Shown: one piece after another, positions 25,595 through 26,619 of the stretch
Layout of the letters: each line of letters begins with the position of its first letter
How positions within the stretch are numbered: the stretch's first letter is position 1
Source: Eledone cirrhosa
Taxonomy: Eukaryota
Reading direction: 5' to 3'
Length of the DNA stretch: 64,000 nt
Assembly (NCBI GenBank): GCA_964016885.1
Contig: OZ024762.1
Span: forward strand, 13,268,001 to 13,332,000
Made by a program: the position numbers and the translations under genes
Notes under the pieces: model-generated
What the model was told of the DNA's origin: nothing
The model's database searches: none
The model's input: the letters and a program-made list of their open reading frames with translations, nothing else

Positions 25595-25660
<66 letters not shown>

Positions 25661-25702
25661 GATATATTAACAAATGGAAACTGTATTTATAAAACCATAT
25701 TT

Positions 25703-25765
25703 ATTTCATTATACATATTTCAAGGACACCAAGTTAAATTATGGTGTGCTTTCATCAGATAAAAT
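25703..25765 (-). ncRNA. Type I hammerhead ribozyme motif (inverted copy)
   Basis: Reverse complement of 25833-25895 within the palindrome. Confidence 0.8.
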
Positions 25766-25832
25766 ATAATATAGATCAGTTTTAAAATATAATATAGATC
25801 TATATTAGATTTATAAAACTGATCTATATTAT

Positions 25833-25895
25833 ATTTTATCTGATGAAAGCACACCATAATTTAACTTGGTGTCCTTGAAATATGTATAATGAAAT
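25833..25895 (+). ncRNA. Type I hammerhead ribozyme motif
   Basis: Stem I ATTTTAT/ATGAAAT; core CTGATGA (25840-25846); stem II AAG-C.C-ACACCA/TGGTGT-C-CTT; GAAA (25877-25880); near-palindromic stem III ATATGTAT; AUA cleavage triplet. Confidence 0.8.
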
Positions 25896-26619
25896 AAATA
25901 TGGTTTTATAAATATAGTTTCCATTTGTTAATATATCGTATTTTTACTCCAATAATTTGTTGAGTGCTTTATATCAGTTATAAAAATATTTGCTTGTTGT
26001 ATCCCAACAATTTAAATAGAACTTCTACATATATATATAAGATAAATAAGATAAATAAATAAATAAAATAAGATAAATAAATACATACACAAGCACATAA
26101 ACACACACTAGTCACCCAGCAGACACAACACTATACACACTAGTCACACATCACACACAACACTATACACACACGCAAACGCATGCGCAAAGAAGACAAA
26201 ATAAAATAAGATAAACAAACAAGCAAATAAATAAATAAATATATAGACAGACTGAACAAAAAAAAAATGGCGTAGACATACAACACAACAGGAGGAACAA
26301 TGAATATAACACCACTGACGATGTTGCAGATGTGCAACGAAAGATTTATGTAAATTATGTAAACTATATATATGTGTTTGTGTCTATATTGTATCTGTAT
26401 TATTTTTGACCGCCGGTCAGTCAATGGCAACATTGAGGACCGAGTAAGTTAGATCGCAGATATATATATATAAAAGACAGCGAGAAGCGAAAACCAACCA
26501 AACAGTGAGTGTGTTCTGTTATTAATTCTGGCAATATTACGCAAATATGACCCTCCCCAAATATAACAATATATATATATACATATATATATATATACTC
26601 ATATATATATATATGTATA

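Follow-up and report, generated by a model that had tools for sequence, protein, structure and literature searches.

The islands that interrupt the (TA)n tracts of this DNA are very probably dead, extremely 5'-truncated ends of EN+ Penelope-like elements (PLEs) lying head-to-head, and their parents probably belonged to the Hydra clade. The window, which is the whole 64,000-nt stretch of Eledone cirrhosa contig OZ024762.1 that was analysed, is microsatellite-rich animal sequence in which TRF masked 36,350 of the 64,000 bases and pure TA alternation makes up 23%. We searched for fold-backs by self-BLAST of the TRF-masked window. The results revealed 11 inverted pairs inside islands, 10 of them bounded by TA; the pair at 43429/43641, where TA does not lie on both sides, was excluded from these 10 fold-backs. 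All nine islands listed in the initial annotation (12905, 25660, 34460, 44825, 58579, 60120, 61289, 25325 and 35281) were confirmed as inverted repeats with TA on both sides, and a symmetric fold-back at 57510-58005 was added. The two arms were 86-100% alike across the 10 fold-backs, all of which were head-to-head: the (TA)n was faced by the 3' ends of both arms or by mirrored ends. In seven the orientation was set by hammerheads or hammerhead halves. In nine of the 10, the short arm terminated where an internal TAT/TATA overlaps the (TA)n, and a tail of 61-136 nt was carried by the other arm alone. Mixed short and long pairs in at least nine of 10 would have a P of at most 0.011 if the arms had picked their ends independently, which suggests that the two priming events are coupled.

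The focal island at 25660-26028 is an asymmetric head-to-head inverted repeat with 139 of 142 aligned columns identical, and its parts are as follows.

25597-25659: left (TA)n target tract, 63 nt, 31.5 units
25660-25784 (-): short arm, the 5'-truncated 3' end of an element, terminating where an internal TAT and the (TA)n overlap
25702-25766 (-): type I hammerhead motif of the short arm, C3 at 25758, predicted cleavage after 25710
25785-25808: junction, a 16-nt re-copy of the left arm plus an 11-nt inverted copy, specific to this locus
25809-25938 (+): long arm, portion common to the short arm
25832-25896 (+): type I hammerhead motif of the long arm, C3 at 25840, GAAA at 25877-25880, predicted cleavage after 25888
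25939-26028 (+): tail of about 90 nt, long arm only, with the stem-loop RCTCY...GAGYRC at 25946-25967
26029-26039: right TA tract, about 11 nt

The other fold-backs differed in family, tail length and hammerhead content, and a comparison within the window showed that even related fold-backs have different centres.

12906-13252: fold-back with a left-hand tail of 61 nt; both arms carry the U3-A8 hammerhead variant
25183-25434: fold-back with a left-hand tail of 136 nt; no hammerhead by descriptor
34460-34836: fold-back with a left-hand tail of 82 nt; no hammerhead by descriptor
35175-35338: small fold-back with arms of 23 bp and a left-hand tail of 106 nt; no hammerhead
44826-45331: fold-back, 130-nt spacer, 108-nt tail, U.U-closed stem II; the left arm passes the descriptor, the right misses stem I
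57510-58005: symmetric fold-back, arms 86% alike, spacer hammerhead at 57806 (-) with a long stem II insert
58580-58779: family B fold-back whose 60-nt arms are identical; 77-nt tail, hammerhead 3' half only
60122-60426: focal-lineage fold-back with a hammerhead in each of its identical 105-nt arms and a left-hand tail of 88 nt
60725-61250: head-to-head pair of two families, a family B tailed end at 60725-60843 (-) and a hammerhead-bearing end with C3 at 60904 (+)
61290-61479: family B fold-back, 77-nt tail, hammerhead 3' half only, centre unlike that of 58580

In addition, a 49-bp inverted pair with a 163-nt spacer lies at 43380-43814 beside a family B copy, and its right part is a repeat that recurs at 20159-20238 and 63480-63542.

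The same ends also occur singly.

33864-34130 (+): single tailed copy of the focal lineage, stem I degenerate
41009-41182 (-): focal-lineage copy, single and short-ended, with hammerhead C3 at 41108
55348-55562 (+): focal-lineage copy, single and short-ended, with hammerhead C3 at 55470
55750-55831 (+): tail-only fragment, 78% like the focal tail, beginning directly after (TA)n
43238-43375 (-): single tailed family B copy
45431-45568 (+) and 10404-10544 (-): further family B copies
38148-38171 (+): short-ended scrap of family B

Single copies stopped either at the short site (41009, 55562 and 38171) or at the tail end (33864 and four family B copies), so that the ends of the fold-back arms recur outside fold-backs. 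Every one of the six long family B copies was without the CUGANGA half of the hammerhead and shared one common 3' end, and four of the six started within a few bases of each other at one short motif. We also observed a tiny palindrome at the 5' junction with (TA)n of two single copies (10544-10560 and 41170-41182).

Hammerheads were assessed with motif descriptors. The focal hammerhead has in both arms an 8-bp stem I, a stem II of about 9 bp, a self-complementary helix III and an AUA site; the type I features (a CUGANGA and GAAA core, stems I, II and III, and an NUH site) are all present at 25840 (+) and 25758 (-). A strict type I descriptor found six motifs, compared to a null mean of 0.01 and a maximum of 1 in 300 island shuffles. 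A relaxed descriptor, widened post hoc on inspection, found 12 motifs at nine loci, compared to 0.10 (maximum 2) in 400 shuffles. The descriptors had been adjusted after inspection, and their matches are mutually non-independent. The check on hammerheads in the window was positive by descriptor and negative by Rfam, which gave no match at the gathering threshold; among the best 150 of 942 rows by E-value there was no hammerhead, and the rows held microRNA models on microsatellites. Taken with the self-BLAST, these counts confirm that the fold-backs and the hammerhead-like motifs are real and well above chance. The initial annotation had placed hammerheads in both arms of at least four fold-backs. 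This held for 12905 (with the U3-A8 core), 25660 and 60120, so that only three of the 10 pass; at 44825 one arm passes and stem I is missed in the other, 58579 and 61289 retain only the hammerhead 3' half, and no hammerhead was found by descriptor in the 34460, 35281 and 25325 fold-backs. As for the single hammerheads it had named, those at 41050 and 55462 pass, whereas 33887 keeps the core, stem II and GAAA but has an eroded stem I. A minimal motif was found at 55066-55108 (+), with C3 at 55070. The core was invariant, except at N7, over five focal-lineage copies, and the changes in helix III were compensatory. U.U closes stem II in three of the 12 matches; the style with a GUH site and U.U-closed stem II fits 45025, 57806 and 60904, and the focal lineage has AUA. 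Monomer folds of single hammerheads gave z scores from 0.65 to -1.86, no better than shuffles (11 regions, one of them ill-placed), as is expected for this type of motif. Besides these, the motif at 57693-57810 (-) has an 8-bp stem II with an insert of about 85 nt, and degenerate hammerhead-like cores that fail the descriptors lie at 26752, 8096 (-) and 5950 (-).

The short ends lie 38-50 nt past the predicted cleavage site in the focal lineage and at 44825, and 17 and 71 nt past it in two other families. The copies continue through the predicted cleavage site, indicating that their template was uncut there. Beyond the short end, the tails share a stem-loop: the motif RCTCY...GAGYRC occurred 18 times in the window, compared to 2.26 expected and a maximum of 7 in 500 shuffles, and 15 of the 18 lay 35-75 nt before (TA)4 (null 1.17). 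These counts are to be read with the motif having been defined after inspection and with six of the 18 matches being family B and so non-independent. Further TA-bounded islands that end in the tail stem-loop and have no hammerhead were seen at 17080-17211, 25465-25595, 27173-27290, 59795-59890, 23170-23235, 10220-10280 and 41400-41474; they are probably tail fragments of other families. No description of this stem-loop was found in listings of the openly searchable literature.

We then consider the parent. A Pfam search of 29 open stretches of the window and of 108 frames from 18 islands, the latter being read-through frames, gave no RT or GIY-YIG match, in agreement with the earlier remark that the window holds no such helper. 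Short motif scans for RT or GIY-YIG found nothing relevant in the window, and exact-pattern scans for longer copies returned none in metagenome contigs, viral contigs and prokaryote genomes. The copies in the window break off no more than about 230 nt from the hammerhead, with no linked RT and GIY-YIG ORF, and masked self-BLAST showed no direct tandem of element ends; a direct pLTR tandem is expected in longer insertions only. The sole clear retroelement frame, at 17355-18328 (+) beside a (TAA)n tract, is the 3' part of a LINE ORF with zf-RVT. Its end is of the restriction-like endonuclease type, it has 76 relatives, most with RVT_1, and we take it to be R4/Dong-like. Other repeats in the window include a dispersed 185-nt repeat (31628-31812, 56672-56857 and 12081-12158; two copies 96% alike), which presumably resembles an octopod SINE and in which no tRNA was called; a broken frame with an internal tandem repeat and no Pfam match at 36920-37566 (-), which we assume to resemble the C-terminal end of an RTE-type LINE; a single C2H2 zinc finger in a short frame at 52066-52236 (-), typical of some LINE ends; and, at 3301-3822, a tandem pair whose units measure about 230-290 nt and are 81% alike.

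Public reads and contigs were compared with the focal island. The sets were chosen by a match to the LINE fragment 17345-18401, so their species may differ from that of the window. In set X1, 5,890 of 16.3 million contigs fit the focal island, 1,919 of them at least 99% alike, and in set X24, 30,050 of 12,467,656 reads fit; X21 (no matching read) and X4 (one contig) do not serve as a test. Loose ends running into TA repeats were found at 25929 (5,210 reads), 25934 (1,218 reads and 54 contigs) and 25941 (47 contigs), showing that the short end recurs. Longer copies exist as well, since 28 contigs extended past 25809 on its upstream side at 87% agreement. Over the arms the summed depth was 10^5-10^6, falling to 69.5 at 25790-25802 in X1 and to about 1-2 at the centre in X24. 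Left-to-right arm joints at other points were present in four single X1 contigs and some X24 reads, with joint sides of 24-30 nt at 85% likeness. Shared arms with an almost unshared centre make the fold-backs look like insertion products and not like a self-propagating unit. Short reads and contigs under-sample palindrome centres. Because of this, because depth is not copy number and because the joint sides are short, the read evidence is supportive, not final. None of the 13 hammerhead variants among the 40 of 82 listed fell on the 11 core positions; four of these 13 keep a pair, six lie in loops and three need a change in the partner. No read or contig among the records listed spans the entire focal locus, so these data do not independently confirm that single locus.

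The results support the earlier proposal of a PLE link, of (TA)n targeting and of several families. The anatomy matches the published PLE insertion pattern. The companion claim that the islands are non-autonomous fold-back retroelements was not supported: centres differ, and in the reads the focal centre is almost absent, the arms are abundant and the joints lie elsewhere. Under the PLE reading, the element's RT-endonuclease would bind the 3' end of the uncleaved transcript, likely at the tail stem-loop, and nick both strands of the (TA)n target. The two nicks would prime reverse transcription at the internal TAT and at the tail end 60-135 nt further; both cDNAs would stop early, their 3' ends would be joined via microhomology or short templated jumps, and repair would then fix the asymmetric palindrome. 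The hammerheads would be passengers from the parent's 3' UTR, and the islands themselves would be inactive. Several points weigh against this parentage: no RT or GIY-YIG remnant was found in the window, three fold-backs carry no hammerhead at all, random truncation would not account for the clustered starts of four of the six family B copies, the tails are 61-136 nt compared to 30-40 bp in the published accounts available, and, for the Hydra clade in particular, the focal lineage has an AUA site with A-U at 10.1-11.1 and other clades target (TA)n too. An origin from MITEs or DNA transposons was rejected because of the asymmetric ends, the occurrence of single arms on their own and the identity of both ends as retroelement 3' ends.

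Within the same PLE parentage, paired priming is reasonably probable. The arms showed no differences from each other at 58580, compared to 4-8 in 42 nt to other copies, and none at 60122, compared to 5 in 97; such identity fits one RNA copied twice, or a snap-back, in which the tail-end cDNA would fold on itself and copy back until the internal TAT annealed to the other (TA)n end. We regard snap-back as possible but doubtful. It accounts for the identical arms, for the 58580 centre, which fits a 3-nt microhomology with a loop from the tailed arm, and for tail-only fragments that start at the same TAT, and self-priming is proposed in the accessible text of PMC3846280. However, the 60122 spacer continues the short arm and matches sequence upstream of the 55470 copy, so that snap-back would need a later inversion of the spacer; the 61290 arms differ where both alleles occur in other copies (one case); the 60725-61250 pair unites two families; and the short site also ends single copies. 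The short-arm spacer of 60122, the allele difference of 61290 and the two-family pair make us lean to paired priming. The identical arms of two fold-backs, together with a focal locus spanned by no listed record, could also be read as long-read fold-back or assembly artefacts, but we consider this exceedingly improbable: the arms end at family-defined ends with unmirrored flanks, the centres contain templated pieces or spacers of 130-162 nt, the short end and arm-to-arm joints are seen again in independent short-read data, and, as the initial annotation had already argued, the arms mismatch, here by up to 14%.

Some ends, family B chiefly, might instead represent a dedicated element of about 140 nt, non-autonomous but transcribed, with a PLE enzyme mobilising it in trans. 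All six long copies lack the CUGANGA half and share one 3' end, one short motif marks the start of four of the six, and partial accounts of non-autonomous Chlamys elements and retrozymes offer precedents. Nevertheless, this is quite unlikely, given that reverse transcription could have stalled at a single point on the strong stem II hairpin, that two copies and the scrap start elsewhere, that no promoter or tandem array was seen, and that copies of the focal lineage continue upstream and vary in their 5' ends. A bolder combination would make paired priming obligatory, with a stem-loop conserved across unrelated families and distant animal phyla loading the enzyme, one priming site on each side and both target strands copying one RNA, and would make family B, a 140-nt end that lost half of its hammerhead, a free SINE-like parasite; we hold this to be unlikely.

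The fold-back itself could also be thought mobile, giving a self-cleaving rod-like or circular RNA of viroid or retrozyme type. The island does fold as a long rod (-204.5 kcal/mol, z -30.6), and the listed read variants spare the core. However, such conservation is expected from the parent, the centres are not common to copies, and the CUGANGA was predicted to be paired with probability 1.0 in all four folded read-through RNAs (for 60120, only this pairing value was counted). The idea of an active ribozyme within a rod-like RNA is contradicted by this pairing of the core with the antisense arm. The related statement that a transcript of either strand contains a sense ribozyme was right in that each strand carries one sense hammerhead, but the core of that hammerhead is predicted to be paired. 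On either strand the antisense arm is transcribed first, and helix III of the one sense hammerhead is of the dimer type; with a single sense hammerhead per strand, no unit can be excised. Retrozyme membership fails as well, there being no same-strand tandem hammerhead units among the 12 matches and no head-to-tail arrays. A viroid-like RNA was rejected on the paired core and on the linear genomic insertion. Overall, a mobile fold-back is barely credible, and a fold-back transcript would more likely act as a double-stranded silencing trigger than as a ribozyme.

The islands are thus mostly ordinary, being new families of a known class explained by known PLE biology. Their value lies in a dense natural record of PLE integration, with many young insertions, two fixed ends and readable junctions. 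A genome-wide count of such insertions could separate paired priming from snap-back; the tail stem-loop is a candidate RNA element for the existing in vitro PLE system. Annotators could mistake such palindromes for MITEs, microRNA hairpins or viroid-like RNAs.

Retrozymes are described, in the portions available of PMC7229834 and bioRxiv 10.64898/2026.07.22.740005, as head-to-tail tandem units with a hammerhead each and a circular RNA. Metazoan non-LTR retrozymes and the window copies are alike in being short and non-coding, with a type I hammerhead and a relation to PLE ends; retrozymes are head-to-tail, whereas the window copies are head-to-head or single. Together with PMC8557442, these sources cover non-autonomous Chlamys elements as well as retrozymes. 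The PLE hammerheads of Cervera and de la Pena (2014, PMC4209133), as far as the accessible text goes, include opposite-strand minimal pairs 100-700 bp apart with a U3-A8 core, and cleavage is weak and dimer-dependent; the motifs are called weak or protein-assisted there and in PMC11167929. The window motifs share with them type I topology, the palindromic helix III, the long helix II, the U3-A8 variant, the opposite-strand pairs 100-700 bp apart and the setting in mostly truncated copies, while the focal motif differs in its 8-bp helix I and in being without the G10.1-C11.1 pair.

For the Hydra clade, the accessible parts of Craig et al. (2021, PMC8557442) report hammerheads with (TA)n insertion and an Octopus bimaculoides member, and list Penelope-13_HM as having a truncated copy in inverted orientation, with a hammerhead on each strand. 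We judged likeness by eye from files S2 and S7 of that paper, as far as these were available. The members Penelope-13_HM, Hydra-2_Amil, Hydra-2_Ajap and Hydra-1_Obim share with the window the (TA)n target and a type I hammerhead close to the 3' end, a trait not unique to the Hydra clade. Further likeness lies in the frequent U.U at the stem II base, the end distances of about 40-50 or about 90-115 nt past the cleavage site and the tail stem-loop. In the supplement, by eye, 14 of 26 Hydra rows have U.U at this position; the axolotl motif has a U.U-closed stem II too (PMC7229834, in part), so this closure is not diagnostic of the clade. Among six Hydra consensuses in the available supplement, three end 36-47 nt past the cleavage site and the other three about 90-115 nt past it, and the RCTCY...GAGYRC stem-loop follows the TAT in two, with a near match in a third. 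In contrast, all 26 Hydra rows have a GUH site and the focal lineage has AUA with A-U at 10.1-11.1; the window copies have no ORF, the place where RT phylogeny and the motifs RWK and DKT with no CCHH would mark the clade, and some of their stem II inserts are much longer. The focal-lineage motifs that were searched for are absent from that supplement.

PLE insertions in general are reported, in the accessible text of PMC8557442, to show heavy 5' truncation, an adjacent inverted truncated copy and a tail of 30-40 bp at one end, and the available part of PMC3846280 describes head-to-head copies with palindromic junctions. EN+ PLEs (PMC3846280, PMC11167929 and PMC8969392, each in part) likewise have an inverted 5'-truncated copy, a tail at one end, a palindromic or microhomology junction and an AT-rich target. 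The window differs in that both copies are shorter than 300 nt and the tails longer than in print; target-site duplications are unreadable within (TA)n. According to the text available from Frangieh et al. (2024, PMC11167929), the Poseidon protein in vitro cuts and extends both strands, starting at two internal sites that bound the tail, with uncleaved RNA as substrate. The accessible text on O. vulgaris (PMC13282606) lists 30 recently active Penelope families and does not mention ribozymes. Against this background, the longer tails (61-136 nt), the common tail stem-loop and the short/long asymmetry in nine of 10 fold-backs are small additions to a known pattern.
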